Virus genome (UHGV): UHGV-0084588
Source of the DNA: a virus
DNA: 64,000 nt
Direction: 5' to 3' (one strand)
Shown here: piece by piece, positions 2,660-58,211 of the stretch
How positions within the stretch are numbered: the first letter of the stretch is position 1
Layout of the letters: each line of letters starts with the position of its first letter
Position numbers and translations under genes: made by a program
The notes under the pieces: generated by a model
Told to the model about the DNA's origin: nothing
The model's input: only the letters and a program-made list of their open reading frames with translations
Databases searched by the model: none

Positions 2660-2671
2660 GGTATTAAACAA

Positions 2672-4966
2672 ATGAAAGATACCCGAATCTCTAATCTGGA
2701 GAAACTCGTACAAGCTGGTAACTCGCTGGTACAAAGCGTCATTAGTAACAACAGTGCTGGCGAAATGTGGAACACCATCGTTGCTGGTGAATCTGTACGT
2801 AGCAACACGAAAGTTTTTGGTACCCTGCGTGACGACGCTGCACAGCACTACGCAAACGCGTTTGCTGGCGGTAAGAAAATGTCCCACGCTGCGGAAGTTG
2901 CTTCTGCAATGATTCTGGGTGCTGCTGGTCACGGTATGGACCTGCAAGAAAAAGTAGCGCAAGAATACGCTAAACCAGAATTCCATAGCCGTTTTAACCT
3001 GGACGTTGCGATTCCTGGTTCCCAAGCTGGTAACGGCGACTGGGGCAAAGAGCGTATGGTTGTCGCTCAGGAATACTACACCAACAAAGACTACGACAAA
3101 AACCTGGGTCTGACCTGGACGCTGAACGTACGTGCTCTGGAAACTCAGTCTCGTTTCGCTGAGACTCTGTTCCCGACCATTACCGTTGACACCAACGATG
3201 TTGGTATTACCGTACGTACCAAAGTGACCACCGTTTCTCGCGGTGTAATGAACGCACTGCTGAGCAAAGACGTTGTTGAAGATCATCGTCGTCCGCTGCA
3301 CAACGCACTGACCGACCACACCGTTCTCCAGGACGAAGCGATCAACATCGTTCCTTACGTAATGGAAACCGGTGAAAACGCTGAATACTTCGTAAGCGAA
3401 GATCTGGTGCCGAACGAATCTGTTCGCCTGGGCCGTGTACCTCCGTACCCGACTAACTACCTGAGCTTTGCTAAAGACACTCTGAACCTGTTCCAGCTGT
3501 CTGCGCATCCGGGTATCGTTCAGGAAGGTTACGACGAAACTGATGAAATCGCACCGGGTTGTGCTCTGGGCAGCCTGCTGATTTCTGTACGTAAACCGAC
3601 CGAAGAAGCGAAAGCAGGTAAGTTCATCAAACTGCACGTTCGTGACATGCAGTTCGCAACCTTCCAGCGTCCTGCTGAAGGTGATGGCCGTGAGCTGGTA
3701 CTGCAATTCCGTCGTACTGCGTTCTCTCTGAACGCGAAAACTACCGACTGGACTGGTGCGGCTATTCCGGCACTGCAAGCGCTGGGTCAGAACTCTTACA
3801 CCCTGCGTTATGTGATCACCATCAACATGTCTCTGTTCACTACCGGTCAGTTCGGTGGTAAAGTTGACATCGCTGGTCACAAACTGGAAATCGAAGGTCT
3901 GTACGACGCTACCGGTAACAAAGTTGATACCAAATCTGGTACCGGCAAAGTTATCCTGGACGGTCTGAAACTTGAACTGATGGGCTGGCGCTTCGATGGT
4001 ACTCGTACCAACGAAAACCGTCGTACCCAGGGTCTGCTGCTTGACCCAATCTGGGAACAAGAAAACTACAAACTGCAATACGGTTCTCCGATTCTGACCA
4101 AGTCTCCGGTTGGCGTTGAATACGACGACACCGAACGTCTGGACGACCTGATTTCCGCAGTTAACATCCGTAACGAACAGCTGGCTATCACTCAGACGCT
4201 GTCTTACACCGAAGCGGTACGTAACGCTGCTGCAAGCATGATCACTCCGTGGGACAAACCGGCCATTCGTGGTCTGGGCCGTCACTGGGTTGCTCCGTGG
4301 TTCAAAGAGTCTGACTACAACGTTGATGAAGTTGTACAGTCCCTGGATACCAAAGATGCACTGATCAACGCTCGTCAGGGCCTGGTACAGCGTATCGGTA
4401 ATCAGGTAACTCAGGCTATCCAGGAATCTCGCTTCATTCCTGCGCTGCGTCTGTACACCGCCGATCCGGACATTCTGCCGAAAGTTGTTATTGCAACTGA
4501 CGAACCGACTGCATCTATGCTGCTGCTGGTACAGGGCGACCAACGTCTGCTGGGCGATCGCTACGAATACGAAGTGATCACCACCAACGATGACCGCTGG
4601 CGTATCTACAACGCAGCTGACGGTTCCTGGACTCGTCGTCTGCAATGGTTCCTGAAAGTTCCGACTGCGGACGATGGTTCCTACAACGTGCTGAACTGGG
4701 GTAACCACTTCTGGTCTCCGATCATGGTTACTAACATCAACATTCAGCGTAACGGCTCTACCTCTAAAGAGCTGGCCGTACAGCCGCGCAACGCACACAT
4801 CTGCCACTGCCCGATCACTGGTCTGATCTGGGTTAAAGGCATCACCAAACTGGTTGAAGAAAAACTGGCTTACAATGTTTCTGTTGAACAGAACGGTCAG
4901 AAGCAAACCGACGGTGGTGTAGCAGGTAACGTTGCTGGCGATGGCAAAGCTGCTGCTGGTAAGTAA
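2672..4966 (+). CDS. putative major capsid protein (764 aa, jumbo-phage size class)
   Basis: Strongest codon bias in the window (ctg, cgt, ggt, gaa, aaa dominate), SD taagg upstream, strong terminator directly downstream. Size matches phiKZ-type capsid proteins; homology was not verified. Confidence 0.5.
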   Translation: MKDTRISNLEKLVQAGNSLVQSVISNNSAGEMWNTIVAGESVRSNTKVFGTLRDDAAQHYANAFAGGKKMSHAAEVASAMILGAAGHGMDLQEKVAQEYAKPEFHSRFNLDVAIPGSQAGNGDWGKERMVVAQEYYTNKDYDKNLGLTWTLNVRALETQSRFAETLFPTITVDTNDVGITVRTKVTTVSRGVMNALLSKDVVEDHRRPLHNALTDHTVLQDEAINIVPYVMETGENAEYFVSEDLVPNESVRLGRVPPYPTNYLSFAKDTLNLFQLSAHPGIVQEGYDETDEIAPGCALGSLLISVRKPTEEAKAGKFIKLHVRDMQFATFQRPAEGDGRELVLQFRRTAFSLNAKTTDWTGAAIPALQALGQNSYTLRYVITINMSLFTTGQFGGKVDIAGHKLEIEGLYDATGNKVDTKSGTGKVILDGLKLELMGWRFDGTRTNENRRTQGLLLDPIWEQENYKLQYGSPILTKSPVGVEYDDTERLDDLISAVNIRNEQLAITQTLSYTEAVRNAAASMITPWDKPAIRGLGRHWVAPWFKESDYNVDEVVQSLDTKDALINARQGLVQRIGNQVTQAIQESRFIPALRLYTADPDILPKVVIATDEPTASMLLLVQGDQRLLGDRYEYEVITTNDDRWRIYNAADGSWTRRLQWFLKVPTADDGSYNVLNWGNHFWSPIMVTNINIQRNGSTSKELAVQPRNAHICHCPITGLIWVKGITKLVEEKLAYNVSVEQNGQKQTDGGVAGNVAGDGKAAAGK

Positions 4967-15303: not shown

Positions 15304-15831
15304 ATGGCATATCGTGTCGATTTAACGAAAGCACCTAAACAAATTTTAGTAGACCGGATTAACTACGTATTTAGTCTATCCTATACTGCTGATAACATCG
15401 AGTTTAACGCAAACGGCGTTCAACCACTAACTTTAGCAGAACGTCAACGTTACGGGCTAGAATCAAAGGTTGCTGCCGTCTTCCGTAACGGCGTTGTCGG
15501 AAACCAGGAATTCATTTTAACTCGCGTTGATTTGGCAACGTTCCTGGCCGATGAACCGGTGAGTGTACCGAAAGGCGCAGTAACGTCCAGCGAAGAGTTG
15601 GCCGATTATATCGTTGCGCAAACAGGGATTGACCTGCGTGCCGACGACATTATGATTGAGCCGATTTCAGAGGAGCTGGATTCTTATGATGTTCGTCTCG
15701 TCCCGAATCATTTGTCTTTTAAAGGAACGATTCCGGTCGTATTTACTGATTCCACTCCACGCAAATTGGCGTCTCTTGTGACGAAATTGGCGTTGGATGG
15801 GTTCCGCCCAGGAGAATTAATCAATGTCTAA
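15304..15831 (+). CDS. hypothetical protein (175 aa)
   Basis: ORF 8 nt after the previous stop, same strand. Confidence 0.55.
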   Translation: MAYRVDLTKAPKQILVDRINYVFSLSYTADNIEFNANGVQPLTLAERQRYGLESKVAAVFRNGVVGNQEFILTRVDLATFLADEPVSVPKGAVTSSEELADYIVAQTGIDLRADDIMIEPISEELDSYDVRLVPNHLSFKGTIPVVFTDSTPRKLASLVTKLALDGFRPGELINV

Positions 15832-25304: not shown

Positions 25305-25350
25305 CTCAGATATATATTACTTAAGTGAGAGTTACAATTAACTCTTTACA
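25305..25350 (+). promoter_or_regulatory. conserved promoter-like element with downstream inverted repeat
   Basis: CTCAGATATATATTACttaaGTGAGAGTT...AACTCT, 45-75 nt upstream of the HTH gene. Confidence 0.45.
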
Positions 25351-34792: not shown

Positions 34793-34986
34793 AAATTTGG
34801 TTACCGATTCTAGTTTTTATCCTTATCGCAGGAGCACTAGCAAGTGCTGAGTACGATAATCGTGTTCTAGAAACAAAGCGCGAACTGTATCAGGACTGTA
34901 TAAAGGATTACACACCGGGTACAGAGCTTCATGCACAGGCTGTAAAAAGTTGTGCACTGATGGCCGAATCGCAGACTCGTTCCTAA
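34789..34986 (+). CDS. small membrane or secreted protein (65 aa), paralog of 34580-34792
   Basis: N-terminal hydrophobic segment WLPILVFILIAGALASA; shares the LY..C...T......A....C pattern with the upstream ORF. Confidence 0.4.
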   Translation: MKIWLPILVFILIAGALASAEYDNRVLETKRELYQDCIKDYTPGTELHAQAVKSCALMAESQTRS

Positions 34987-35360
34987 TGCGAATCTGGACG
35001 CTACAACTCGCTAAGTGGCGATTAGCTAAGCAGAAAGGATTTCGCGCAGTGGATATCACTGTGAAGTCAGGGCGAAAGGAACTCGCCCCAGACTGGGATT
35101 TCCTAATGGCGTATAAAAACTCTGCCCAAGACGCCGCCGCTGAGCGTGAATACACGATAAAGTATTTGTACAAACTCGAACGACTGTTAGATACCGATGC
35201 CGAAACGTTGGTCTCGTTGCTTAGACACGAAGATTTGGTTTTGATGTGCTATTGTCCCGCAGGTAAGTTTTGTCATCGTCACCTACTGGCGAACAAACTT
35301 CAAGAAGTGGGAATGACGTTCGGTATCGATGTTGAGTTATGTGGAGAACTAACGGTCTGA
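34986..35360 (+). CDS. hypothetical protein (about 124 aa)
   Basis: Track ORF 34950-35360 trimmed to the ATG at 34986 (TAATG overlap with upstream stop); terminator downstream. Confidence 0.45.
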   Translation: MRIWTLQLAKWRLAKQKGFRAVDITVKSGRKELAPDWDFLMAYKNSAQDAAAEREYTIKYLYKLERLLDTDAETLVSLLRHEDLVLMCYCPAGKFCHRHLLANKLQEVGMTFGIDVELCGELTV

Positions 35361-35386
35361 TTTGATATTTAGCTGCAAAATGACCG

Positions 35387-35431
35387 CCTACCGCCCGATT
35401 CTATGGGCGGTAGGTGTTTTTATTTTTTTTT
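35387..35431 (+). terminator. rho-independent terminator before the fibre module
   Basis: CCTACCGCCC-gattctat-GGGCGGTAGG followed by tgtttttattttttttt. Confidence 0.65.
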
Positions 35432-35447: not shown

Positions 35448-36008
35448 GTGACTGCTTACGTACCTGATTTAAGTTTGTCCTCAGCCGAACTAGTGGTCGC
35501 TTTAATCAACCACGATAACGGTTCACGGTTGTCTCTAAGCGAAATCCGTATTAGCAACACTACGGCAAACCCATCCCCGACCACTTCGCGTCGTAACACA
35601 CTGACAGAGATTACAAAAATCAGGAAACCTGATGGTGCTTCTGTAGTTGTTTATTACGACCGTTTGGATGCGGACGAAGTGTTAGCGTCTGAACCTATTT
35701 TGATTTCGTTAGATGGTACTGAAGACAACCTTCGTGACATTTTAGGTGTTGTAAATGAATTCTGCGGAACGAACTTACAACCCGAGGATTTACGTGCTTC
35801 AGATATCACCTTAGGTAAAGAACCCATTGCTGTCAACGTTGCTGACGATTCCCCTGCGTGGATGAATGCGTTTATGGTGACGTTATTTGATACAACCGAA
35901 CGGGCATTGGCAAACGAAGAAGATGCAATCTTCTGTATTGATGATGAGGCCGTTCTTACCTTTGAGGTTCCAGATGACGGTACGGCTGAAGAAAATCCGG
36001 CTATATGA
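35448..36008 (+). CDS. fibre-module accessory protein, member of a six-copy paralogous family
   Basis: GTG at 35448 preceded by gggagg; the track start at 35403 falls inside the terminator hairpin. Paralog of 42163-42678. Confidence 0.5.
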   Translation: MTAYVPDLSLSSAELVVALINHDNGSRLSLSEIRISNTTANPSPTTSRRNTLTEITKIRKPDGASVVVYYDRLDADEVLASEPILISLDGTEDNLRDILGVVNEFCGTNLQPEDLRASDITLGKEPIAVNVADDSPAWMNAFMVTLFDTTERALANEEDAIFCIDDEAVLTFEVPDDGTAEENPAI

Positions 36009-36212
36009 GCTTGACGCTTTTACTGGTAATGGAGGCCAAAGTAAACTTTTATCAAGACTTAGTAAACCCAGATCATGAGAACGCGGAATTGGACATCACT
36101 TTCACGTTAGAAGTTGATGGATTAAAACCAGTATAATAATCCGCTTATAAAAATGTTGGGGAGGTGCTTTACCTCCCCAGATCTTTTAGCTCCAGATAGA
36201 GAATTAAATATC

Positions 36213-39200
36213 ATGGCTAAAGCGGTAAAGAAAATACGTTTACACGATTTGCGTCCATACACCGGGGATATCGGTGAAGGCGTTTTACTTTTTTCGAAAG
36301 ACGAAAAAGATTATAAGTTACCCGTCCGCGAAATCGTTGCGGATATTGACACCGTCAGAAACGCGGTTGCTGATGCACAAACAGCTGCAGCCAAATCGCA
36401 GCAGTCTGCAACAGAAGCTACGCAAGCAAAAAATTTAGCGGAAACCGCGAAGCAACAAACTGACACGTTAGCTTCCACAGTCAGTGAGCAAGCGGGAACC
36501 GTTGCCACTAAAACTGCTGAAGTTAACAAAAAACACGCTGAAGTTTTAGCAGCGAAAACTGCCGTAGATACTGTTTCACAATCAGTAAATGAGAAGGCTC
36601 AAGCTGTCGCCACATCCGAACAATCTGTGACGGCTACGGCGGCTGATGTAACTAAGAAAGCAGAAACGGTTACGCAACAGGCCGGACAAGTTCAACAGAC
36701 GGCTACCAGCGTTGAAAATACCGCAGCTTCAGTCGAGGCCAGTAAAGGTGCAGTGGAGAAAATCGCTGCACAGGTCGCGAAAGATAAAGAAAGCTCAGAA
36801 GGGGCAGCTACGCGTTCGGAGTCAGCTGCCCTACGTGCGGAGAAAATCGCTGCCCAAGGATTAGTTGACGCTACTACAACCGGTAAAGGTATTGTTAAAC
36901 TTAACGATACCCTGACAAGCGATTCCGTGACTGAGGCTGCTACACCGTCCACGGTTAAACAGCTGAACGACGATTTACAGTTAAAAGCCAATAAACATTC
37001 GCCGAATTTTACGGGTAACCCGACATCCCCAAAACCGCCGAAGGACTCGAATGACACGAGTATCTCCACAACGTCCTGGGTGCGTGACGCGATTGCGGAA
37101 TTGGTTGGTTCTTCACCCGAGACGCTAAATACCTTAGCGGAATTAGCTGAGGCGTTAGGTAATGACCCTAACTTCGCAACAACGATCACTGAGGAACTTG
37201 CGCAGAAACAACCTCTCAGCCCGTTACTCACCGCTATTGCCGCAGTCACCACAGCGGCAAACAAACTCATGTATTTCACCGGCAGTAATAAAGTCGGATT
37301 AACAGATTTTACAGAAACGGCCAGATCCTTGTTAGCGAAAGGGTCAACTGCGGATATCATTAACTTCCTGGGTTTGAAACCCACCGTTGATAAAGCAAAC
37401 GGCGCATTACAGAAAAACTCTAACGGTGCTGATATCCCAAATAAAGAAACTTTTGCTCGCAACATCGGCCTATCTCCTGATACCTATCTGCGTTTCCGTG
37501 GCGAAATGCCTGTAGATGCTGATATTAACACATTTGCTCCAGATGCTAATTACACAGGAACATGGTCCAAGTCGACATCAACCAATGCGTCGATGGCAAA
37601 ACACTTCCCAGAAGACGGTGCAGTCGGTTATCTGGAAGTGTATAAAGCGGGCAACTACAGTGGAGCGCAACGTTTTACCTGCCGTAATGGTAACGTGTAC
37701 AACCGTATGTTGTCAGGTGCGTGGAACGGAACTAATGGCCCGTGGTCACCGTGGAGAATGGTAACTACCGGTGTACGTCCGTTATCTACATCGATCGATC
37801 TGAACTCCTTAGGCGGCGCTGAGCACATGGGTAACTGGCGTAACTCGTCCAGTTCGTTAGCGGTGTTCGACAGACATTATCCTGAAGAGGGCGGTAATGC
37901 GCAAGGCGTATTAGAAGTCATGGAAGGCGGTCTTTATGGACGGTTGCAACGATACACCACACGACATGGTACGATGTATGTCCGTGGTTTGACTGCGACT
38001 TGGGATTCTTCTAATCCGCAGTGGGAAGATTGGATTCAGGTTGGGTATCAGGTAGACGGTGCCTACTATAAGGGTAGCTTTAACGACTTAACTAAACCGG
38101 GCCGCTTTAGTGTTACCGGTGAGGCTACAGACAGTCCGTTAACAGACTCTGCTGGCGCAACCTTGCTAGGTGTTTGCGAAGTTACCTTACGCTTAGACGG
38201 TTCAGGCGTTGAACAAAATTATACCACATACGGTACAGGCGCAACTTCGAAAGGTCGCAAGTTCCAACGAATTCGTACAGGAAACGCCTGGAGCGAATGG
38301 CGAGAGATTTTCACATCCTATTCACTCCCGTTGACTTTAGGGATCGGTGGGGTTGCTGCTAAGGTCGATCCGTTAGACTGGCAAACATTCGACTTCGTTC
38401 CTGGCCAGATGATAAGTACACCGTTGAATACCATGAAAAATATTCCTGCGGGAATGGATTGGGGTGTTATCGACGGTAACTTGGTCACTATTCTTGTAGG
38501 GGCGTCGGAGGACACCGGTACTGGCCGGAGTATGTTGGTCTGGCGTGGTACAGTGTCTACTGCTAACTATCGCTTCTTTGCTGTTCGCGTCGCTGGTGAA
38601 AAGGGTAAACGTACTATTACTAGCCGCCAGATGCCCGTATTGAATGCAGCGCATACGTGGGCAGAAAAACAGACCTTTGCAAAAGGGTTATCGGGCGAAT
38701 TGACAGGTAATGCGTCAACGGCAACAAAACTGAAAACAGCCCGTTTAATCGGCGGTGTAAGTTTCGACGGTAGCGGCGACATTAGCCTCCCTGGTGTGAA
38801 CCAACAGGGTAATCAAAACACCTCTGGGAACGCGGGAACCGCAACCAAATTACAAACGGCTCGAAACATCAACGGTGTGAAATTTGATGGGTCTAGAGAC
38901 ATCAATATCAACACGTTGGTAGGACGTGGACGTGTTACTGCACTGTCTGGTTCAAACAAAGGTACACCCGGTATTCAGATGTACGAAGTTTACAATAACG
39001 GTTATCCAACCGCTTATGGTAACTTACTGCATTTGGGTGGCGCTACTGCGCTAGGTGAAGGCGAGCTGTTAATCGGATGGCCGGGGACGAGCGGTGCGCA
39101 CGCGCCTGTTTATATTCGTAGTCGACGTGATACGGCTGATGCACCGTGGTCAGATTGGGCACAAGTTTACACTGCCCGTGACAGCATTCCTGGCGTAAAT

Positions 39201-40655
39201 GCCACCGGTAATCAAGATACTACCGGCAACGCCGCTACCGCGACGAAACTGAAAACCGCTCGCAGGATCGGAGGCGTTACCTTTGACGGTACAGGTGATA
39301 TCAATTTACCGGGCGTTAACCAGCAAGGCAACCAGAATACGACAGGTAATGCAGCGACCGCTACTAAGTTACAAACCGCACGTAAGATCGGCGGTGTGCT
39401 TTTCGATGGGACAAAAGACGTTAATCTTCCTGGCGTAAACCAAACCGGTAACCAATCGACTACGGGGAATGCGGCGACAGCGACTAAGCTCCAGACTGCG
39501 CGAAATATAGGTGGTGTAGCTTTTGATGGTACTAAAGACATCAGTTTACCTGGAGTAAACCAAACAGGTAATCAGGCGACTACCGGAAACGCAGCCACGG
39601 CAACAAAGTTGCAAACCGCAAGAACCATTAACGGTATCGCATTTGACGGCACTAGAAATATATCGTTAGGACCTGCCGATATAGGTTGTCCGGCATCGCC
39701 TAGTGGTTGGTTAGAAACTGGCAAAGATGGCGGCGCAATAACTACAGCACAGCTAGTGACGTTATTGAAAAATAACGGCGCATTTACCACAAGATCGTGG
39801 GTTGCTCGCTGTGCATGGGCTTATGCCGCTAGTGCGTCCATACCACACAGCGAGACGGGTTGTGGTGTTATTCCGTTAGCTGGGGCCGTTATAGAAGTGA
39901 TTAGTAACGGTAATAGCACAAACAACTACACGATCCGTATAACGACTGCCACAACGGCGAGCGTCGGTGGCGCACTCACTAATGCGGAGTTTATCTACGT
40001 ATTTAACGGCGATACATACTCACCAGGCTGGCGTCGTGCTTACAATACGAGAAACAAGCCAACTGCTGCAGAAGTGGGTGCACTACCTTCGGGGGGCGGT
40101 ACTATAGGCGGCGATTTAACCGTTAACGGTAAATTGGCCACTAAATACCCTGATTTTCGAATCGCTTACGGTACCTACGGTTTTATTTTACGTAACGACG
40201 GTGCCAATACCTATTTCTTAGTAACCGACGCCGGACAAGCCGCAACGGGTTCCTGGAACGGATTACGCCCGTTGTCTTTTAATAATTCTAACGGCCAAGT
40301 AAACTTTGGACATAACGTTACTGGCAACGGTAACGGTTCGTTTAACGACGTACAGATTCGTTCTGACCGTCGTAACAAACGTAATCTGGTGAAGCTGGAT
40401 AAAGCTTTGGATCGGTTAGAGTTACTAACCGGTTATTTGTACGAAATTCAGCATCCGGATGACGGCTGGCAGACTTCTGTAGGTCTAATTGCTCAGGACG
40501 CATTAGAAGCGTTACCTGAACTTGTGTCTGAGGATGATGATGCCATTTCAGGCGAAAAACGTTTACGTCTAAACTACAATGGCGTTATTGCGCTGTTAGT
40601 AGAGGGTATGAAAGCGTTGCGTCAAGAGGTTAACGAAATTAAAGGAAGATCCTAA
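36213..40655 (+). CDS. tail fibre protein with Ala-rich coiled coil, 40-aa tandem repeats and C-terminal intramolecular chaperone (S74-like) domain
   Basis: 1480-aa ORF; repeats GNAATATKLQTAR.IGGV.FDGT.DI.LPGVNQ.GNQ.TT; C-terminal SDRRNKRN...GLIAQD...YNGVIALLVEGMKALRQE resembles the self-cleaving chaperone domain of tail fibres and tailspikes. Start moved from 36153 to 36213 by paralogy with 42678. Confidence 0.85.
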   Translation: MAKAVKKIRLHDLRPYTGDIGEGVLLFSKDEKDYKLPVREIVADIDTVRNAVADAQTAAAKSQQSATEATQAKNLAETAKQQTDTLASTVSEQAGTVATKTAEVNKKHAEVLAAKTAVDTVSQSVNEKAQAVATSEQSVTATAADVTKKAETVTQQAGQVQQTATSVENTAASVEASKGAVEKIAAQVAKDKESSEGAATRSESAALRAEKIAAQGLVDATTTGKGIVKLNDTLTSDSVTEAATPSTVKQLNDDLQLKANKHSPNFTGNPTSPKPPKDSNDTSISTTSWVRDAIAELVGSSPETLNTLAELAEALGNDPNFATTITEELAQKQPLSPLLTAIAAVTTAANKLMYFTGSNKVGLTDFTETARSLLAKGSTADIINFLGLKPTVDKANGALQKNSNGADIPNKETFARNIGLSPDTYLRFRGEMPVDADINTFAPDANYTGTWSKSTSTNASMAKHFPEDGAVGYLEVYKAGNYSGAQRFTCRNGNVYNRMLSGAWNGTNGPWSPWRMVTTGVRPLSTSIDLNSLGGAEHMGNWRNSSSSLAVFDRHYPEEGGNAQGVLEVMEGGLYGRLQRYTTRHGTMYVRGLTATWDSSNPQWEDWIQVGYQVDGAYYKGSFNDLTKPGRFSVTGEATDSPLTDSAGATLLGVCEVTLRLDGSGVEQNYTTYGTGATSKGRKFQRIRTGNAWSEWREIFTSYSLPLTLGIGGVAAKVDPLDWQTFDFVPGQMISTPLNTMKNIPAGMDWGVIDGNLVTILVGASEDTGTGRSMLVWRGTVSTANYRFFAVRVAGEKGKRTITSRQMPVLNAAHTWAEKQTFAKGLSGELTGNASTATKLKTARLIGGVSFDGSGDISLPGVNQQGNQNTSGNAGTATKLQTARNINGVKFDGSRDININTLVGRGRVTALSGSNKGTPGIQMYEVYNNGYPTAYGNLLHLGGATALGEGELLIGWPGTSGAHAPVYIRSRRDTADAPWSDWAQVYTARDSIPGVNATGNQDTTGNAATATKLKTARRIGGVTFDGTGDINLPGVNQQGNQNTTGNAATATKLQTARKIGGVLFDGTKDVNLPGVNQTGNQSTTGNAATATKLQTARNIGGVAFDGTKDISLPGVNQTGNQATTGNAATATKLQTARTINGIAFDGTRNISLGPADIGCPASPSGWLETGKDGGAITTAQLVTLLKNNGAFTTRSWVARCAWAYAASASIPHSETGCGVIPLAGAVIEVISNGNSTNNYTIRITTATTASVGGALTNAEFIYVFNGDTYSPGWRRAYNTRNKPTAAEVGALPSGGGTIGGDLTVNGKLATKYPDFRIAYGTYGFILRNDGANTYFLVTDAGQAATGSWNGLRPLSFNNSNGQVNFGHNVTGNGNGSFNDVQIRSDRRNKRNLVKLDKALDRLELLTGYLYEIQHPDDGWQTSVGLIAQDALEALPELVSEDDDAISGEKRLRLNYNGVIALLVEGMKALRQEVNEIKGRS
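38706..38912 (+). repeat. two tandem copies of a 120-bp (40-aa) fibre repeat inside the tail fibre gene
   Basis: Encodes GNASTATKLKTARLIGGVSFDGSGDISLPGVNQQGNQNTS followed by a diverged copy. Confidence 0.7.
39225..39680 (+). repeat. four tandem copies of the 120-bp (40-aa) fibre repeat inside the tail fibre gene
   Basis: Copies begin at 39225, 39345, 39465 and 39585; each encodes GNAATATKLQTAR.IGGV.FDGT.DI.LPGVNQ.GNQ.TT with synonymous codon drift. Confidence 0.8.
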
Positions 40656-41437
40656 TGGCAGTTGTCGGCGTAGGTGGTTGGATTGGTTCTTCAGCAAAAG
40701 CTGAAGCTGGTAACGAATGGATGTCTGGCGCGATGCGCACACTTGGTGTGCCGGTTCCAGGCTGGATGTCGCAATTGGCGGGAAAATCAAAAGAGGTCCA
40801 TTATTCTATTGGTGCTAACCATAGCTATAATAAGGATACTCTTATTAACTATTTACGTTCTTTAGGCTCTACTGCTGTCGTTGTGACTATTACGGGGGAT
40901 TTAGTGTCCCATAGTAGCACGGTTCCTTGTTTAGAATTCCCTAGCAATCTTCCAAATTCGTATATTACCCTCATCATCAATCCTGGGGTTACAGTATACG
41001 GCAGAGGAGGCAACGGCGGTTCTAACTCACCAGGCGGTGCAGGTGGAACCGCAATACAGAACGGAATAGGAAACAGACTGCGTATAACCAACCGTGGCGC
41101 TATTGCCGGAGGCGGTGGCGGCGGTGGCGGCGGTAACAGGGGTAGACTAACATTTGGTGGTGGCGGTGGTCGCCCATTCGGTGCTGGTGGGTCTTCCTCT
41201 CATATGAGTTCCGGTGCGGCTGCTGGTACTATTTCCGCTCCTGGTAGAGGATCTGTTGGTGAGGGGTCTCTTAGTGCATATACAGGCGGTTCGGGTGGTA
41301 ATGTCGGTGCTGCTGGAGGAAGATGTAATACTCATGGTAACGGTACAGAATATAACGGCGGAGCAGCTGGTAAAGCTGTTACTGGTAATGCGCCAAGATG
41401 GGACGCAGTAGGTGCAATATATGGTTCACGTGTTTAA
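40655..41437 (+). CDS. glycine-rich protein (260 aa), likely fibre-associated
   Basis: Start overlaps the fibre gene stop (TAATG); contains GGGGGGGGGNRGRLTFGGGGGRPFGAGGSS. Confidence 0.6.
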   Translation: MAVVGVGGWIGSSAKAEAGNEWMSGAMRTLGVPVPGWMSQLAGKSKEVHYSIGANHSYNKDTLINYLRSLGSTAVVVTITGDLVSHSSTVPCLEFPSNLPNSYITLIINPGVTVYGRGGNGGSNSPGGAGGTAIQNGIGNRLRITNRGAIAGGGGGGGGGNRGRLTFGGGGGRPFGAGGSSSHMSSGAAAGTISAPGRGSVGEGSLSAYTGGSGGNVGAAGGRCNTHGNGTEYNGGAAGKAVTGNAPRWDAVGAIYGSRV

Positions 41438-41497
41438 TTTGAAAAAGTATGGGGGTACTCACTCCCCTCCTCGCATCTTTCAAAAGGTGGGGGTAAA

Positions 41498-42010
41498 ATG
41501 GCGGTAGCATCAGGATGGGTCGGATCTTCAGCTAAGAATGAAACTGGCGAACAATGGATGAGCGCTGCGGGTAGTAAATTAGGATTGGGTAGACCATTTA
41601 TGATGAGTCAAATGGTGGGCCGATCTACGGGTTGTAAAATTGCGACCGCTTACTACAAAGGGAATCCTCCTGATAAAGTTGAAAACTGGGGGGCCGTAGG
41701 TTCAGATTGGCCATTGGCTGAAAAGAACAAAGGCACAATTACTGGTGCTTCGAGCTGTGGTTTAGGTCGTTTAGTGGGGATCGTACTTACGCAAGCTCAC
41801 TACATTTCTGGTGTTCCACCCACTGCGGCTTTATACATCGCAGGAGGAAGGGCAAGTAATATTACAGTAACAGTTGGTGGGGTCTCACAAGTTTTCACCT
41901 ATAATAGTGTTATTAACGGTTTTCACTATTACTGGCAAGGAACACCTAGTTCGGCCTTTATAGCAGCAATGAAGAGAACGGGTGTTACACAAGATTTGAA
42001 AATTAGTTAA
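41498..42010 (+). CDS. paralog of the glycine-rich protein (N-terminal domain only, 170 aa)
   Basis: N-terminus MAVASGWVGSSAKNETGEQWMSAA aligns with MAVVGVGGWIGSSAKAEAGNEWMSGA of 40655-41437. Confidence 0.55.
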   Translation: MAVASGWVGSSAKNETGEQWMSAAGSKLGLGRPFMMSQMVGRSTGCKIATAYYKGNPPDKVENWGAVGSDWPLAEKNKGTITGASSCGLGRLVGIVLTQAHYISGVPPTAALYIAGGRASNITVTVGGVSQVFTYNSVINGFHYYWQGTPSSAFIAAMKRTGVTQDLKIS

Positions 42011-42162
42011 CTAATTGGGGTAAAACGACAACTAATGCTAGTAAAATAAGAGTTAGTGAATTCGTAATTCAATAATTTTTTATAGAAAGGCTGATTTATT
42101 AGAATCGGAGGGGGTAAGATGTTGCTAGAAACATTTCACCCCCTACCATAGGGAGTAAGCTT

Positions 42163-42678
42163 ATGGGGCAATTCGTGCCGGATTTGTCGTTAACTTCACT
42201 TAACATGGTTATTTCACTGGTTAACCATGACCTCCAGCTCGACTTGCAAGAGAACGAGGTTGAAGTCAGCGACGTAAAGACCAGTAACGAAATGGATCGT
42301 GACACCACTGCTGTTGTAAAGATAAAACGTCCGGACAACAGAACGTTGCAGATATATTACAACCGTTTAACCGCAGAGCGGTGGTTAAACCAGCAACCTA
42401 TCCTAGTAAAGGTTTCCGGTAATGGCTTTACCGCACACGATCTAATCGACGGAATTAACGCGGCTTGTGGTTGTAATTTACAACCCGACGATCTTACCGA
42501 CGAATCATTTACCGTAGGGAAAGACGCTGTAACGTTACAGGTTTCACCCAACTCGTTAGGTTATAAAGGCCAATTCTCCGTTCTGGTTTTCGGTAACGAT
42601 GAAGAAGCTGCTGTAGTAAAAGACAACGATTTAATCGTTACCGCAGATAACCGTGTCTTAACATTCGGAGGCCGCTAA
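42163..42678 (+). CDS. fibre-module accessory protein, paralog of 35448-36008
   Basis: Shares PDLSL..., IYYNRLTA and CGCNLQPDDL motifs with 35448-36008; SD gggag upstream. Confidence 0.55.
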   Translation: MGQFVPDLSLTSLNMVISLVNHDLQLDLQENEVEVSDVKTSNEMDRDTTAVVKIKRPDNRTLQIYYNRLTAERWLNQQPILVKVSGNGFTAHDLIDGINAACGCNLQPDDLTDESFTVGKDAVTLQVSPNSLGYKGQFSVLVFGNDEEAAVVKDNDLIVTADNRVLTFGGR

Positions 42679-43298
42679 TGGCTGAACTGGTAGGAAAGGT
42701 GCGCATTCATGAACTGGAGACACTTTCAGAAGACATCACGGGTGTAGTAGTCTTAGCGTCTAAGGAACAAACTGAATACCAACTCCCGATTGAGAAATTA
42801 GGGGGTACCGAGGTTACAGTGAGTCCGTCAGCGAATAACATCCTTAAGTCTAACAACGATGGGTTGTTTGTTGACGGCACTCATCCGATTATACCAAAAA
42901 TGGATGCAAAAACCTTATCGGGAAATATGGTGGTAGAAAAAACGTTGACAGGTGGTGCGGTAATCTGCAAAACAACAGTTGACGTTAATAATAGACTGGG
43001 GGTTTCGCAATTATCTGGAGTGTCAATTTATAGCCAGTGTCTGTTGGAAAATAAATTGGTTTATCTGGGAGAAGACGGCAGTATTATTGATGCGTACTTC
43101 TACATTAGTAATACAAAGACCACAGCCAGTACAATAACCCACACCATTCGTGTTGTTTTAGCGAAGATACCCTCTAAAGTTATCGATATCACCGATTTGT
43201 CTGAAACCGAAGTACAATACGAGAATAGTAATTTACCTGTTAAGATCGTTATTAAACATCTTGCAGGGACAACACTTTCCCAGAACGGAATGAAATAA
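42678..43298 (+). CDS. putative second receptor-binding or fibre protein sharing the N-terminal domain of the 1480-aa fibre (206 aa)
   Basis: N-terminus MAELVGKVRIHELETLSEDITGVVVLASKEQTEYQLPIEKL aligns with MAKAVKKIRLHDLRPYTGDIGEGVLLFSKDEKDYKLPVREI of 36213; terminator downstream. Confidence 0.5.
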   Translation: MAELVGKVRIHELETLSEDITGVVVLASKEQTEYQLPIEKLGGTEVTVSPSANNILKSNNDGLFVDGTHPIIPKMDAKTLSGNMVVEKTLTGGAVICKTTVDVNNRLGVSQLSGVSIYSQCLLENKLVYLGEDGSIIDAYFYISNTKTTASTITHTIRVVLAKIPSKVIDITDLSETEVQYENSNLPVKIVIKHLAGTTLSQNGMK

Positions 43299-43304
43299 AT
43301 TTTA

Positions 43305-43352
43305 GGTAGTAGGGGCTTAAGCCCCTACTACCTTTTCTTTTTTTTATTTTTT
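43305..43352 (+). terminator. rho-independent terminator after the fibre module
   Basis: GGTAGTAGGGGC-ttaa-GCCCCTACTACC followed by ttttcttttttttatttttt. Confidence 0.7.
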
Positions 43353-43398
43353 CTCAGATATATATTACCTAGGGGAGAGTGAAATTTACATTCACTCC
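43353..43398 (+). promoter_or_regulatory. conserved promoter-like element with downstream inverted repeat
   Basis: CTCAGATATATATTACCTAGGgGAGAGTGAAatttacaTTCACTCC upstream of 43426. Confidence 0.45.
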
Positions 43399-43425: not shown

Positions 43426-44277
43426 ATGTATCACCCGTATTATCTCCCGCGTATTCTAGCAAATAGGGACCCTGGTTATTACTACGAACAAACAAAGGGG
43501 TCTTTTAATCGACTTTACATTCGTGAATTTAATACCGACGAAATGACCGATGACCAGTATCTGGAGTATCTAAAAGACCTTTACAGTTTTTCAAAATCGA
43601 ATAAAGATGGCTTTGGACGTTCCGCAGTCATTAGAGATGGTGAATATCGCCATTTGGCTAAGCCTGTTACGTACCCTATTGTTACGCGAGCTTATACGTC
43701 GGATAGGCAATATATTGCTGAACTAAAATTTCCTTTACGGATAGACGGGCCTCAAATTAGCGCTATAGAAGTAGAAATTCAACCAATTGCTGAAAACTAT
43801 ATTGAGGACTACTTCAAGAAAGCTAAAGACGTACTCGACGAGGGTTTAAGTTACTCTGAAGAAGGCACGATTTGTCTTCTCTCGTTACTCACGAAGACTT
43901 ACGTCACGGCAAATTTCCGTGTCTCTGATTCCAGTAACTACAATACACTTACTCCCTCTAAGACAAAATCGGTTTATTGGGACGATCGGTTAGTCGACAG
44001 ACAACGCTGGCTTACTATCTTAGATAGAGTAAAATTCGAACCCCCTAAACACACCGAAGACAATTTTATTTTATTGCACAACTTCGAACCAATTTATATT
44101 CCAACGCATTTTGATCAAGCCTTACGTCATCGGTTGAAGTATGTGTTGGAATTACGGTACGGAAAGATAAACGGACTAACCTGTTCCGGTGAATTGGGTG
44201 AAGAAGAACGCGAGAAGATAAAAATCGTGTTTGATAAGTTGGTTGAAGATTACATTAAGAAGGAAGGGCAATTATGA
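43426..44277 (+). CDS. hypothetical protein (283 aa)
   Basis: ORF preceded by a promoter-like element and SD aaggagg. Confidence 0.5.
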   Translation: MYHPYYLPRILANRDPGYYYEQTKGSFNRLYIREFNTDEMTDDQYLEYLKDLYSFSKSNKDGFGRSAVIRDGEYRHLAKPVTYPIVTRAYTSDRQYIAELKFPLRIDGPQISAIEVEIQPIAENYIEDYFKKAKDVLDEGLSYSEEGTICLLSLLTKTYVTANFRVSDSSNYNTLTPSKTKSVYWDDRLVDRQRWLTILDRVKFEPPKHTEDNFILLHNFEPIYIPTHFDQALRHRLKYVLELRYGKINGLTCSGELGEEEREKIKIVFDKLVEDYIKKEGQL

Positions 44278-47260: not shown

Positions 47261-47307
47261 TTCAGATATATATTACCTAGGTGAGAGTTCAGTTACTCTC
47301 ACTTAAC
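47261..47307 (+). promoter_or_regulatory. conserved promoter-like element with perfect palindrome
   Basis: TTCAGATATATATTACCTAGGTGAGAGTtcagttACTCTCACTTAACG upstream of 47332. Confidence 0.45.
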
Positions 47308-50505: not shown

Positions 50506-51354
50506 ATGTCTCTTACGTCAAAACAGAAACTGCTAAAACTCATCAACACTGAAAACAATATTGTTCCGCCATTGACCTTCAGTGATGTTGATATCGGCGA
50601 ACCTACTGGTACTGGGGTTGATACCCAGGTGGTTCTGACTTCTAAACTCAAAGGCGATGAGTCTACTACTTTAACGGTGACTTACCATCGTCGTAATTTG
50701 CCAGAATACCTAACAGGCGAGTTGGTATTCGGTAACGACGGTGTTGTAACTGCTGCAGATTTGCTTAATGCAATCAACGCAAAATACGATTTAAATATTC
50801 TGCCGTCAGATATCGTTGATGCGAAAGTTGAAGGTAAAACCCACCAACTTGCCGCTAACGAGAAATCCTACGAGTGGTGTGGCGAAGTGACACTTACGCT
50901 ACGCGATCCTATTGATCTGGCTAAACTGCTACCTGTTACTCAATTAGAAAACCTGGTAGAGTATCCGTCCACCAAGAAAGGTAACGCTGCGGTTTATTCT
51001 TATCCGATTGACTTCACCGCAGAAAAAGATTACCTTGATCCGATTACCATTAACGACACCGTAGACTTAGTAGAGTTAGCTACTAAACTGACTAACGTTG
51101 TTGACGAGAAATGGGTAAGCGTACCTAAGAACGCTGCTAATAACTTGTTCGGTGCTAAGGTTATCTACGATGGCCCTACCGCAGGTTTCGAAGGCGCAAA
51201 TGCGAAGTACACGCGTGTGCTGGTACTCGCCCTAAGCGGTATGTGTTCTAACCTGACCGGTAAACTGTTAATTCACTTTAACGGAACCGATCGTCCGAAG
51301 TCGAAGATTGAATTAGCCAAGACTAATTCGGTCTTACCGGGATTCTTAGATTAA
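50506..51354 (+). CDS. member of a six-copy paralogous protein family, possibly structural (282 aa)
   Basis: N-terminal pattern L..LIN..N......T..DV..GEP.....G..T.V.LT.........(Y/H).R shared with 51368, 54511, 55107, 35448 and 42163. Confidence 0.55.
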   Translation: MSLTSKQKLLKLINTENNIVPPLTFSDVDIGEPTGTGVDTQVVLTSKLKGDESTTLTVTYHRRNLPEYLTGELVFGNDGVVTAADLLNAINAKYDLNILPSDIVDAKVEGKTHQLAANEKSYEWCGEVTLTLRDPIDLAKLLPVTQLENLVEYPSTKKGNAAVYSYPIDFTAEKDYLDPITINDTVDLVELATKLTNVVDEKWVSVPKNAANNLFGAKVIYDGPTAGFEGANAKYTRVLVLALSGMCSNLTGKLLIHFNGTDRPKSKIELAKTNSVLPGFLD

Positions 51355-51367
51355 GAGGATTACAGTA

Positions 51368-51844
51368 ATGACCAGTCAAGAAACTATCTTCGACCTTATT
51401 AAAAAGGCTAACCCAGACGCCGAGCTCGACACCGCCAAAGTCACATTGGGTGAGCCCGTCGTAAGTACCGGTACGTACAACACCGAAATTACGGTTGCGC
51501 CGGTGAAGAATCTCGGTTATGTTAATAAGCAAACGTTCCAGTATAACCGCATTGATGCAGGTTTGTATTTCCTCAACGTATTGCCGAAACTGTTAGTTGA
51601 AACAGCCACCACGACTGCGGACTTGCTGCCTGTAATTAACGAGCAGTATGGCTTAACCCTTACCGAAGACGATGTGTGGGTAGAGCAGGTTGGTGCGTTA
51701 CCGCTAGACGGCAGTGCAATCGAGCACGGTATTTTCTTCCGCCCAGAGTGTCTAACCTGGGTCGGTGGTTTTACAGTGCGTGTTGCGCGTAAACCGTCTG
51801 TCGAGACACCGCCAGCTAAGCCATCGCGCGCTAAGAAGAAATAA
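51368..51844 (+). CDS. member of the same paralogous family (158 aa)
   Basis: Family pattern as above; terminator downstream. Confidence 0.55.
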   Translation: MTSQETIFDLIKKANPDAELDTAKVTLGEPVVSTGTYNTEITVAPVKNLGYVNKQTFQYNRIDAGLYFLNVLPKLLVETATTTADLLPVINEQYGLTLTEDDVWVEQVGALPLDGSAIEHGIFFRPECLTWVGGFTVRVARKPSVETPPAKPSRAKKK

Positions 51845-51906: not shown

Positions 51907-52497
51907 ATGGCCGAACGTTGGACTAAAGAAGGTATTATTGAATCAAAAACAGATTTAGAGGGTGGGTACGTGAACGACCCTGACGATAAAGGTGGGGAAA
52001 CCTGTCACGGGGTAACACTGACAACTGCACGCGAATACGGGTACAAAGGAAGAATGAAAGATCTGACCCGTGCGCAAGCGTTTGATATTTACGATCGTGG
52101 TTGGTGGAAGAAACTTAAACTCGATGAGATTTTCGCTATCTCGCCGATACTCGCAGACCGGATGTTTGATTTTGGTATTAACTCTGGCCGTGTTAACTGT
52201 GTGAAATCATTACAACGTATTCTCAACGTTTTAAATAACGAAGGGAAACTTTACGCAGATATTGACACCGACGGTGGCATGGGCCCTAAAACGCTAGGTG
52301 CCCTGAATGCTTATCTGAATTACCGTAAAGGCGAGGGATTAGGCATCTTAATCTTTGCGTTAATCTCACACCAGGTAACCTACTACACGGAAATCTCCGA
52401 AAAGCGTAAGAAGAATGAAAAATTCGCTTACGGCTGGTACGGACGCGTGTACAGGGAAATGCCGGATTATGTAGTGAAGGCGGGGTTAGTAAAATGA
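51907..52497 (+). CDS. endolysin, glycoside hydrolase family 108 muramidase with peptidoglycan-binding C-terminal domain
   Basis: N-terminal EGGYVNDPDDKGGETCHGVT is the hallmark GH108 motif; the C-terminal half resembles the associated PG-binding domain. Confidence 0.8.
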   Translation: MAERWTKEGIIESKTDLEGGYVNDPDDKGGETCHGVTLTTAREYGYKGRMKDLTRAQAFDIYDRGWWKKLKLDEIFAISPILADRMFDFGINSGRVNCVKSLQRILNVLNNEGKLYADIDTDGGMGPKTLGALNAYLNYRKGEGLGILIFALISHQVTYYTEISEKRKKNEKFAYGWYGRVYREMPDYVVKAGLVK

Positions 52498-56372: not shown

Positions 56373-56938
56373 TCTTCTTCTCCAACCATACCTAATTCTT
56401 GCAGCAAGCCAAAATCAATCAACTGGAAGGTTTCAGAGAGATCGTTTGACCACACCACGTTTGCAATGTCGCGTTCTTCATCGGATAATTGCGGTAACAC
56501 ATTTTCGTTGAACGTCTGATGCTCTACGTAATAAGCATCGTAGATAGACGTAGAACGCAAGCAACGGATTGGCAGTCTTGGGAAAGACACCGCTAATGCA
56601 GCAATAGATGCGCTGCTCGGATTCTCCGCAGAATAGCGAAGCAATTCGATTTTGTGGCGCGGATAGTCCAGTACGCGTTGCTCGAAACCCGGATTACGTT
56701 TTTCGATTTCAACAACGGACTCATGACCTGTTTCTGTACAGTAAACGGGAATCATCACGTTTAGCCCGTACTTAATTAACAGAGGTTTAATCTCATCTGT
56801 AAAGTCTTCGCCAGGGATAATGGCGTGAACGTTATAGAGTTTATGTTTGCGCAGAAAACGCTCAACCAGATGGAGTTTACGCTTCGTAAAATTGTGGATC
56901 AGAATTGATTTCATTATTTGCCTCAGTAGGTTGTGCAT
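56348..56938 (-). CDS. hypothetical protein in the radical SAM operon (188-196 aa)
   Basis: ORF overlapping the rSAM gene stop; an alternative ATG at 56914 has SD gagg. Confidence 0.5.
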   Translation of the reverse strand: MHNLLRQIMKSILIHNFTKRKLHLVERFLRKHKLYNVHAIIPGEDFTDEIKPLLIKYGLNVMIPVYCTETGHESVVEIEKRNPGFEQRVLDYPRHKIELLRYSAENPSSASIAALAVSFPRLPIRCLRSTSIYDAYYVEHQTFNENVLPQLSDEERDIANVVWSNDLSETFQLIDFGLLQELGMVGEEECLLLTKA

Positions 56939-58211
56939 TTAAAGCACGTTTAGCTTGCTCACGCTCACGCGTACATTTCGGACAGTAACAAACAGACGAA
57001 TCGTGCAGTGACGATGCGTGGACGGTACCCGTACGTTGACGCCAGTATTCTGCTGCCATCAGTTTTGCGGTCGTCCAGCCACATTGACGACGTTCAGCGT
57101 GGTACGCCTTACGGTCTTCCAGTGTCCCTTCACCGTTTTCGTAGGAAGCAGCTGCACAGCTGCCACAACCGTGTTTCATCGGACAGCCTAAGCACGTTTC
57201 AGGGTAGTTAGTATATTGCGTCTGAATCTCTTCCAGCAGCTTCCCGTCATCTAAACTAACGAACTCGCGACCAACTAATTCAAACACCGCAGAACGTGAC
57301 GTTACCGTTGACATAAAACGGTTACAACCGTATACCTTGCGGTCAAAACCTAAACAGGTCATGAACGTTAACGTACCACAGAACGGACGTAGGCGATCTG
57401 GGTTATAACGATGCGTGTCGTCATACAGCAGCTTATCGCGCCAATCTGGGTCCCAAATCTGACGGAAATCCAGACCTTCGGGAATGATATGTGACAACAC
57501 GTTACGTGGATTGGTGTGCAACCCTTTCTCAATCCAATAATCCATCACGTCGATCATCTGCAACGCAATATCCGTTGCCATGCTCCGTGGAAGAATATCT
57601 TCGTACGTAACGTTACCTGAAATCGTACCGCCACCGGCAACATCGATTAGCGATTTCATACTCGCTGCATAATGCGGTAACGTTTCGGTCGTAAAGGTTG
57701 CCTTGATACCCAGTTCAGCAATACCGACTTCTTTTAAGTAGTTATAGCCACGAACAGCGGCTTCGTAAGAACCTTGACGCGTCGTGGTAAAGATACGATA
57801 GCGGTCATGGACTTCTGGTAAACCGTCGATAGAAACACCGATGGAGAGTTTGTCTTTCCAACGCTCAACAATCTCACGGTTTAACGGGCGATCTAACAAC
57901 GTACCGTTAGTTGAGATACTGAACATATACGGGCGATTGTGCTCCTTACACAACTGTTCTGCGGTTTCGAACGCCGCTAACAGCAGTTTCGGTTGCATAA
58001 AAGGCTCACCGCCGATGATATCAATAATGACGTCGATGTTCGGAATATCTTTATCGCGCTCAAAACACGCGTGTAAGAAATCCACGATATCCGCCGCTTT
58101 GTTATTACGCGGATACTTACGTTCGTAACAATACTCACAGTCTAAGTTACAAGACAGATTCGTTACCACCTGGTAAGTACGTTGAGAACGTGGTGCTTCA
58201 TTATTGCTCAT
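56877..58211 (-). CDS. radical SAM enzyme with C-terminal SPASM-like Cys-rich domain (444 aa), candidate peptide maturase
   Basis: Canonical CNLDCEYC (CxxxCxxC) near the N-terminus; C-terminal clusters FCGTLTFMTCLG...GCNRF and CLGCPMKHGCGSCAAA fit the auxiliary Fe-S pattern of SPASM/twitch domains. Confidence 0.75.
   Translation of the reverse strand: MSNNEAPRSQRTYQVVTNLSCNLDCEYCYERKYPRNNKAADIVDFLHACFERDKDIPNIDVIIDIIGGEPFMQPKLLLAAFETAEQLCKEHNRPYMFSISTNGTLLDRPLNREIVERWKDKLSIGVSIDGLPEVHDRYRIFTTTRQGSYEAAVRGYNYLKEVGIAELGIKATFTTETLPHYAASMKSLIDVAGGGTISGNVTYEDILPRSMATDIALQMIDVMDYWIEKGLHTNPRNVLSHIIPEGLDFRQIWDPDWRDKLLYDDTHRYNPDRLRPFCGTLTFMTCLGFDRKVYGCNRFMSTVTSRSAVFELVGREFVSLDDGKLLEEIQTQYTNYPETCLGCPMKHGCGSCAAASYENGEGTLEDRKAYHAERRQCGWTTAKLMAAEYWRQRTGTVHASSLHDSSVCYCPKCTREREQAKRALNAQPTEANNEINSDPQFYEA

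Follow-up and report, generated by a model that had tools for sequence, protein, structure and literature searches.

The 64,000-nucleotide stretch of the virus genome UHGV-0084588 analysed here (hereafter the window) encodes, between positions 35,448 and 43,298, what we interpret with a probability of about 0.7 as a host-recognition cassette with two nested plug-and-socket levels. At the first level, a 41-residue N-terminal anchor (the plug) would attach otherwise unrelated receptor-binding proteins to the tail, most likely at the outer peripheral baseplate via the DUF7941 proteins whose genes head each operon. The plug-bearers of the window would be a trimeric long tail fibre of 1480 amino acids (aa) and a 206-aa minimal fibre with a lectin-like beta-sandwich tip. 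At the second level, an S74 chaperone would fold, cleave itself off and expose the gp37-type tip of the long fibre, and either of two adhesins, which share the Gp38_N domain and differ in their receptor-binding domains, would cap each fibre. The virion would show at least three different receptor-binding surfaces, and lineages would change their host range by swap, gain or loss of plug-bearing genes or adhesins. An earlier note on this DNA had described the region as two fibre units, one consisting of a DUF7941 gene and the long fibre gene (unit 1) and the other of a second DUF7941 gene and the gene for the 206-aa protein (unit 2); all four open reading frames (ORFs) are present as it had placed them (Table 1).

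Residues 1-41 of the long fibre and of the 206-aa protein align without gaps, with 16 of 41 positions identical and 29 of 41 positive (BLASTP, E=7e-8), and beyond this segment the two proteins share no significant similarity. To avoid circularity, a hidden Markov model (HMM) of the anchor was built from seven proteins of other phages, excluding the window proteins and their orthologues. Among the 1105 six-frame ORFs of the window, this model retrieved the two proteins with E=1.3e-17 and 8.4e-17, a third, truncated match had E=2.5e-4, and the next intact ORF had an E value of 2.9. The pairwise alignment of the two N-termini and the independent HMM (~1e-17) hence bear out the proposal of the earlier note that both proteins carry a common N-terminal domain of about 40 aa, and the restriction of the similarity to residues 1-41 agrees with its view that the distal parts are unrelated. 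The anchor follows the consensus MA..VKK.RLHEL......G....V.L.SKD.KEYKLP and belongs to no family in scans of the Pfam and PHROG libraries.

In searches that included an exhaustive profile scan over 1.8 billion representative proteins, the anchor was confined to jumbo phages of the SPN3US- and Asesino-like groups and to uncultured relatives of these, in which the same 41-residue N-terminus precedes at least seven unrelated distal architectures. These comprise a gp123-type protein (153-156 aa), the long fibre (1385-1541 aa), a 273-aa protein, the 205/206-aa protein, a 710-aa Ig/FN3 protein, a 706-aa protein with SASA esterase and DUF6645 domains and a 133-aa protein, the last two being among the cargoes retrieved by the profile scan. 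Judged by sequence, the anchor duplication is a clade-wide module and not private to the window genome. All anchor genes found reside within DUF7941-headed operons, in which the first anchor gene overlaps the 3' end or stop codon of the DUF7941 gene. SPN3US, Asesino and EC001 encode a DUF7941 protein followed by a 154-161-aa protein starting MA..VKKKRLHEL... and a protein of ~1000 aa annotated as 'tail protein'. Mass spectrometry of the SPN3US proteome detected the anchor-bearing gp123 and the large gp124 in whole virions and found both absent or strongly depleted in tailless particles, and the authors class them as tail proteins; the DUF7941 protein gp122 yielded few spectra, in whole virions only. 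Candidate anchors elsewhere were rejected. Weak matches in Felix-O1-like phages (tblastn, E 0.2-0.9) lie at the C-terminal end of a small early-region protein and were judged to be due to chance. Goslar gp90, which is encoded after the DUF7941 gene gp91, has a different N-terminus that we take to be of the P2/P1 type, and gp87 and gp88 are unrelated. The 215-aa protein P0036 ends in the same tip as the 206-aa protein, and its N-terminus bears a vague resemblance to the anchor; it is encoded, however, in an HP1/P2-like prophage beside baseplate J and I genes and does not carry this anchor.

The number of anchor proteins differs strongly between genomes. SPN3US, Asesino and EC001 each encode a single one, and five are present in L005 (153, 1385, 273, 205 and 710 aa; L numbers designate relatives of the window). 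L004 contains four and a remnant, L016 three, L014, L020, L022 and L023 two or three, L007-L009 two, and the window two and a remnant. In L024 and L025, a 706-aa esterase replaces the 206-aa protein between DUF7941-2 and a conserved 283-aa gene, with DNA homology to the window breaking at 42593 and resuming at 43338. The esterase of L024 (8001-10121 of the 226-kb contig GCA_958329725.1) consists of the anchor, a SASA carbohydrate esterase domain and DUF6645. The last ~28 residues of DUF7941-2 also differ where the esterase replaces the 206-aa protein; this change together with the downstream anchor represents one event and may just mark the recombination breakpoint. In L022 and L023, the bodies of the 206-aa gene (window positions 42672-43260) and of the 283-aa gene (43446-44213) are precisely deleted; the 3' ends of both genes, the terminator and a promoter-like repeat remain.

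A further loss has left its scar in unit 1 of the window, where the fibre gene directly follows DUF7941-1 because a 3.4-kb deletion removed two intervening genes. The ORF at 35974 begins with MTVRLKKIRLYELDAFTGNGGQ, corresponding to the first ~22-24 residues of the 153-aa anchor protein, and was recognized in five runs of the anchor HMM (E=8e-5 to 5e-4). Its first 35 nt lie within the end of DUF7941-1, as they do in relatives with the intact gene (L005, L014, L020, L022 and L023). From 36044, another frame encodes ...NFYQDLVNPDHENAELDITFTLEVDGLK, which shares 15 of 28 residues with the C-terminus of SPN3US gp124 (BLASTP, E=3e-8). In DNA alignments with L022 and L023, ~3360 bp are missing from the window; the deletion junction is located at ~36027-36082, and the scar spans 35974-36136. 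This scar is common to the window, L004, L007 and L016 and is therefore ancestral to a subclade. The observation of the earlier note that each anchor gene is preceded by a paralogous accessory gene is correct, but the immediate adjacency of the two genes in unit 1 is a product of the deletion. The gp123/gp124 unit has been lost in these four genomes and the 206-aa gene in L022 and L023, and the genomes with these reciprocal losses all keep both DUF7941 genes and the long fibre. Such independent losses argue that the anchor proteins attach in parallel, without depending on each other. The comparison with relatives, including the esterase at the position of the 206-aa gene, the presence of one to five copies and the scarred losses, upholds the idea that one attachment domain with swapped distal domains constitutes a host-range cassette.

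From its sequence, the 206-aa protein is read as a minimal fibre composed of plug and tip. Homologues of residues ~43-205 (E down to 1e-36) form the extreme C-terminus in ~30 protein clusters (proteins of 184-865 aa), whose N-termini are of the P2 tail-collar (PF12571), lambdoid Stf (PF08400) or collagen/YadA-like type. The tip occurs behind other N-termini in all these clusters and therefore represents a mobile fibre-tip domain. AlphaFold2 (AF2) modelled it confidently as a beta-sandwich from a 28-sequence alignment, an earlier run on a 5-sequence alignment having been poor (predicted local distance difference test, pLDDT, 56), and the structural neighbours of the model are lectins and fibre tips. 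No Pfam family was identified in the 206-aa protein, a PDB sequence search with the tip profile gave no match, and neither did tblastn of the protein against isolated phages; its known occurrences are confined to assemblies and metagenomes. In ~15 sequence clusters the ORF is intact, with a length of 205-206 aa, and the ratio of nonsynonymous to synonymous substitution rates (dN/dS) of 0.14-0.27 indicates purifying selection. Compared with the divergent allele of L004 (52% identical), the anchor is 79% and the distal part 38% identical. We infer that the protein is present in the virion and acts as a receptor binder.

Alternatively, the 206-aa protein might be a structural connector, cap or assembly factor of the fibre apparatus, of the hinge- or tip-associated type, which shares its N-terminus with the fibre by way of the same complex. 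Its very short length without a stalk, the lack of a Pfam family, and the 91-99% identity in most relatives together with purifying selection would all suit such a function. We nevertheless regard a connector as unlikely, as many bona fide fibres with other N-termini end in the same distal domain, an esterase-type receptor-binding protein takes the same position in relatives, and the 52%-identical allele differs mainly in its distal part. Furthermore, two otherwise complete 222-kb genomes have lost the 206-aa gene by a clean deletion and still encode the long fibre, so that the fibre apparatus does not need this protein.

In the long fibre, the second plug-bearer of the window, the anchor is followed by a long helical stalk, by repeats of the T-even type, by a trimerisation domain of the gp34 type and finally by a gp37-type tip with an S74 chaperone. 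Pfam domains identified in it are Phage_fiber_2, Gp34_trimer (aa 1256-1355) and Peptidase_S74 (aa 1384-1438), and PDB sequence matches include Mu fibre S, T4 gp34 and the S16 gp37 tip construct (6f45_A), which matches residues 1339-1478 with E=2.7e-12. Between the window and L005, the fibres are 79% identical over the first ~1070 aa and differ in their tips. The S74 domain starts with an SDRRNK motif and, by analogy with its family, is expected to be cleaved off, exposing a gp38-binding tip.

Two gp38-type adhesin genes, overlooked in the earlier note, lie between the two units. The first encodes a 260-aa protein with Gp38_N and the glycine-rich GP38 domain, which matches S16 gp38 over its full length (6f45_D, E=2.7e-50) with visible polyglycine motifs, and the gene shares 79-90% nucleotide identity with gp38 genes of T-even-like phages. 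The second adhesin is similar to the first in its N-terminus (21 of 38 residues identical, E=6e-10) and matches 6f45_D in residues 1-43 only; the C-terminal domains differ, that of the second lacking the GP38 domain in the Pfam scan and standing outside this domain family. It shares 93% amino-acid identity with the product of a gene of E. coli phage CMS-2020a. In T2 and S16, gp38 binds the gp37 tip through its N-terminal domain. As the second adhesin shares this Gp38_N attachment domain, it is expected to bind the fibre tip in the same way, and the two adhesins are most likely alternative caps that would compete for one tip. Both adhesins are kept in at least seven relatives, L016 encodes one and L005 none, and two gp38-like genes also lie side by side in at least one Klebsiella Straboviridae genome. 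The earlier suggestion of two alternative receptor-binding proteins is thus right as to alternatives but too low in its count, since the fibre would be able to carry either of two adhesins.

Table 1. Location of cassette features and of further DUF7941 paralogs in the window (PF25613 cut-off, 27 bits)
Feature	Position	Strand	Evidence or remark
Further DUF7941 paralog	15304-15831		
DUF488-N3a family gene	34950-35360		Left flank of cassette
Intrinsic-terminator hairpin, 13-bp stem and T-run	35385-35416	+	Terminator scan; RNA fold z=-4.2
DUF7941-1, 186 aa	35448-36008	+	PF25613 68.6 bits; phrog_2935 'virion structural protein'
Remnant, 5' end of a third anchor gene (153-aa SPN3US gp123 type)	35974-36048	+	Anchor HMM
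Frame-shifted remnant, last ~30 codons of 1001-aa gp124-type tail protein	36044-36136	+	BLASTP
Hairpin, 11-bp stem	36156-36179	+	Upstream of fibre gene
Long tail fibre, 1480 aa	36213-40655	+	PHROG tail-fibre families; Pfam; PDB sequence matches
Anchor copy 1	36213-36335	+	Fibre residues 1-41
C-terminal intramolecular chaperone (Peptidase_S74)	40362-40652	+	PF13884 39.9 bits, cut-off 22
gp38 adhesin, 260 aa	40655-41437	+	PF05268 237 bits; PF21721 52 bits
Second gp38-type adhesin, 170 aa	41498-42010	+	Gp38_N 74 bits; phrog_1121 'tail fiber adhesin'
Hairpin before unit 2	42108-42144	+	RNA fold z=-3.3 for intergenic region
DUF7941-2, 171 aa	42163-42678	+	PF25613 62.5 bits; PHROG match 'virion structural protein'
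Putative minimal short fibre, 206 aa	42678-43298	+	Anchor aa 1-41, short linker, beta-sandwich tip aa 44-206
Anchor copy 2	42678-42800	+	Residues 1-41 of 206-aa protein
Intrinsic terminator, 13-bp stem and T-run	43304-43333	+	After 206-aa gene; closes cassette
Further DUF7941 paralog	50506-51354		One of full-length and short pair
Further DUF7941 paralog	51368-51844		One of full-length and short pair

The genes that head the two units encode paralogous DUF7941 proteins, which share 58 of 172 residues (34%, E=1e-34). DUF7941-1 has a GTG start codon preceded by a GGGAGG ribosome-binding site and is the orthologue of SPN3US gp122 (~45% identity, tblastn against phages). DUF7941-2 is a divergent paralog, 31% identical to gp122, and the 206-aa gene starts within its stop codon. 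Both are of a short type that matches only the first 150-170 of 276 profile positions, and a PDB sequence search with DUF7941-1 gave no match. The paralogy of these upstream genes agrees with the earlier note, but what it had called accessory genes encode DUF7941 virion proteins and not chaperone-like accessories. In Goslar, DUF7941 has been described as a chimallivirus-specific family that is abundant in virions and builds head-to-tail filaments in vitro; it was placed at the outermost peripheral baseplate of phiKZ, and some paralogs are fused to carbohydrate-binding or hydrolase domains (bioRxiv 10.64898/2026.04.21.720040). According to the same preprint, which also discusses the published structure of the phiKZ virion, the peripheral baseplate is largely unmodelled in Goslar and phiKZ, and the Goslar fibres could not be assigned. 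In L007 (8067-10001) and also in L008, L009 and L015, DUF7941-2 forms residues 482-620 of a 644-aa protein, whose N-terminal 470 residues resemble an (alpha/alpha)6 glycosidase by eye and have no Pfam match; its domain order is the reverse of the Goslar DUF7941 fusions. Among the further paralogs of the window, the adjacent full-length and short pair resembles Goslar gp22/gp23, and a GH108/PG_binding_3 endolysin-like gene is located just downstream of it (51907-52497).

The plug would act as a docking domain, and DUF7941 proteins are its favoured partner for four reasons: every anchor gene is found in a DUF7941-headed operon; the first anchor gene overlaps the DUF7941 stop codon; DUF7941 has been assigned to the outer baseplate of phiKZ (bioRxiv 10.64898/2026.04.21.720040); and the last 28 residues of DUF7941-2 changed with the downstream anchor in one swap. 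On this basis we infer that DUF7941 is the socket of the plug. Homology between the two, for example as a linker mimic, was considered and rejected (hhalign probability 0.3%), although binding does not need homology. Several findings weigh against the interpretation as a whole. The profile comparison found no relation between anchor and DUF7941, the anchor is modelled as a monomer at pLDDT <50, and two cassette DUF7941 genes stand against up to five anchor proteins. In Goslar, gp90 is likewise encoded behind a DUF7941 gene, yet its N-terminus is a different one, the covariation of the DUF7941-2 tail with the anchor stems from a single recombination event, and the 206-aa protein is 91-99% conserved in most relatives, above many receptor-binding proteins. 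A more far-reaching and rather doubtful extension is that the plug docks on DUF7941 protomers, with the peripheral-baseplate or filament assembly of DUF7941 that has been proposed for chimalliviruses serving as a multivalent rack on which any number of interchangeable receptor-binding proteins, such as long fibres, mini-fibres and esterases, would hang in parallel.

The 41 residues could instead initiate trimerisation or be a tag recognized by a shared assembly chaperone or at a common assembly site, with tail attachment located elsewhere. The lack of structure in monomer models, the excess of anchor proteins over adjacent DUF7941 genes and the failure of profile comparison with DUF7941 to reveal an anchor partner would be compatible with such a role. 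It is improbable, however, as almost nothing but the anchor could serve attachment in cargoes of 133-273 aa, and the 156-aa SPN3US gp123 is a tail component. In addition, cargoes that require a chaperone are already provided with a separate one (DUF4376 genes, S74 intramolecular chaperone), and a conserved N-terminus with a variable distal part is generally known as the signature of virion-attachment domains (bioRxiv 10.64898/2026.05.12.724579). That the similarity is due to chance, or that the 206-aa ORF is a functionless decaying fragment of a duplicated fibre gene, as a match of only 41 residues and the real gene remnants in the cassette could suggest, is effectively refuted by the independent HMM score (~1e-17), a dN/dS of 0.14-0.27, the intact ORF in ~15 clusters and the confident fold of the distal domain.

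The hairpins that the earlier note had placed before each unit were confirmed at 35385-35416 (z=-4.2) and 42108-42144 (z=-3.3). The first is a terminator at the end of the upstream DUF488 operon, in front of unit 1. The additional hairpin in front of the fibre gene was inherited from the intergenic region 3' of the 1001-aa gene in relatives. A motif, GATATATATTACCTAG, occurs in two exact copies and one with two mismatches (43357-43372, 47265-47280 and 25309-25324). The copy at 43357 follows the terminator at the end of the cassette, 54 bp upstream of the gene starting at 43426, and the copy at 47265 immediately abuts the gene that begins at 47281. The repeat looks like a candidate phage promoter element, and its count is weakly above chance (three observed; shuffle mean 0.4, with three reached in 2 of 100 shuffles).

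The window derives from a jumbo phage of the phiKZ type that is SPN3US-like. Among its products are the major head protein of giant phages, a replicative helicase and virion structural proteins, and one virion protein is ~76% identical to the counterpart of Salmonella phage SPN3US. At the DNA level, the cassette as a whole has no counterpart in any isolated phage of the collection; matches are limited to the gp38 region (T-even-like phages) and the second adhesin (E. coli phage CMS-2020a). Close relatives are restricted to assemblies and metagenomes and include 220-226-kb contigs from human-gut metagenomes and contigs in E. coli, Shigella and Salmonella assemblies. L022 (NZ_CP173450.1) and L023 (NZ_CP134650.1) are complete circular records of ~222 kb deposited as plasmids of E. 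coli 98232 and Enterobacter ludwigii, respectively. The ~23-kb stretches compared are colinear with the window across the cassette and the sequences beside it (81-96% nucleotide identity), and both records are therefore most likely genomes of the jumbo-phage clade of the window. The DUF488-N3a gene is kept as the left flank in the SPN3US annotation and in every clade member in which this flank was captured. Elsewhere in the window, the major head protein gene (2672-4966, + strand) contains zero TTA, CTA or TCA among its 765 codons, compared with 44-56 per 1000 codons in other long window genes. As these codons are missing, a 752-aa ORF is open on the opposite strand (2648-4906, - strand), which is probably a by-product of extreme codon bias in a very highly expressed head gene. 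A radical-SAM domain protein (phrog_1802) is encoded at 56877-58211 (- strand), among minus-strand genes at the right end of the window.

Anchors or adaptors shared by multiple receptor-binding proteins occur in phi92, K1-5/SP6, CBA120 (TSP1-4), G7C (gp63.1/gp66), RaK2 and phiKp24. As in these phages, an N-terminal module is found on interchangeable binding or enzymatic domains, with several per genome and exchange at one locus. In contrast, the anchor of the window is a distinct sequence of ~41 residues that always occurs in DUF7941-headed operons, and the reciprocal losses suggest parallel and not serial (branched) attachment. In T5-like DT57C, the adjacent lateral fibre genes LtfA and LtfB have related attachment regions and different receptor specificity, and one fibre attaches to the other; in the clade described here, each anchor protein can be lost independently, and a common socket is therefore suggested. 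The principle of a conserved attachment domain with interchangeable receptor-binding domains is general (bioRxiv 10.64898/2026.05.12.724579).

Close counterparts of the cassette are SPN3US gp122-gp123-gp124 and Asesino gp139-141; the window encodes an orthologue of gp122, its anchor equals the N-terminus of gp123, and it retains scars of gp123-like and gp124-like genes. These isolates encode a single anchor protein, and their locus lacks the long fibre, the gp38 adhesins and the second DUF7941 unit; relative to them, a T-even-like fibre, two adhesins and the second unit have been added in the clade of the window. The T2/T6/S16 tip system (PDB 6F45) likewise has a gp37-like fibre C-terminus and a full-length gp38 homologue, and Gp38_N is present in both adhesins of the window. 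Here, however, it is found on a jumbo-phage fibre with another proximal anchor and with two adhesin genes, the second of which has a non-GP38 C-terminal domain. Further counterparts are the filament or 'fiber cloud' DUF7941 proteins of Chimalliviridae, namely Goslar gp22/gp23, gp86 and gp91-93 and phiKZ gp126/127 (bioRxiv 10.64898/2026.04.21.720040). The DUF7941 gene gp91 of Goslar also directly precedes the long fibre gene gp90, but some host-recognition domains of Goslar are fused to DUF7941, and those of the window clade are mostly carried by separate plug-bearing proteins. A preprint on an Enterobacter jumbo phage contains no fibre analysis.

Shared-anchor receptor-binding proteins and the gp37/gp38 tip system are already known. 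The anchor family and its consistent association with DUF7941 in an uncultured SPN3US-like jumbo-phage clade are new, as are the two proposed nested plug-and-socket levels in one cassette and the natural series of gains, swaps and scarred losses. The cassette, which is probably the host-range toolkit of the phage, provides a testable attachment rule for one clade, with a 41-aa plug, a candidate DUF7941 socket and genomes carrying one to five plug-bearers. It also offers an entry point to the host-recognition apparatus of chimalliviruses, the nucleus-forming jumbo phages, through a clade that is present in E. coli, Shigella, Salmonella and Enterobacter assemblies as well as in gut metagenomes. 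The plug could help to annotate receptor-binding proteins now labelled 'hypothetical' and could serve as the point of attachment for new receptor-binding domains when the host range of such phages is engineered. If DUF7941 does form a rack for plug-bearing proteins, this would constitute a new kind of host-recognition organelle and a handle on the outer baseplate of nucleus-forming jumbo phages.

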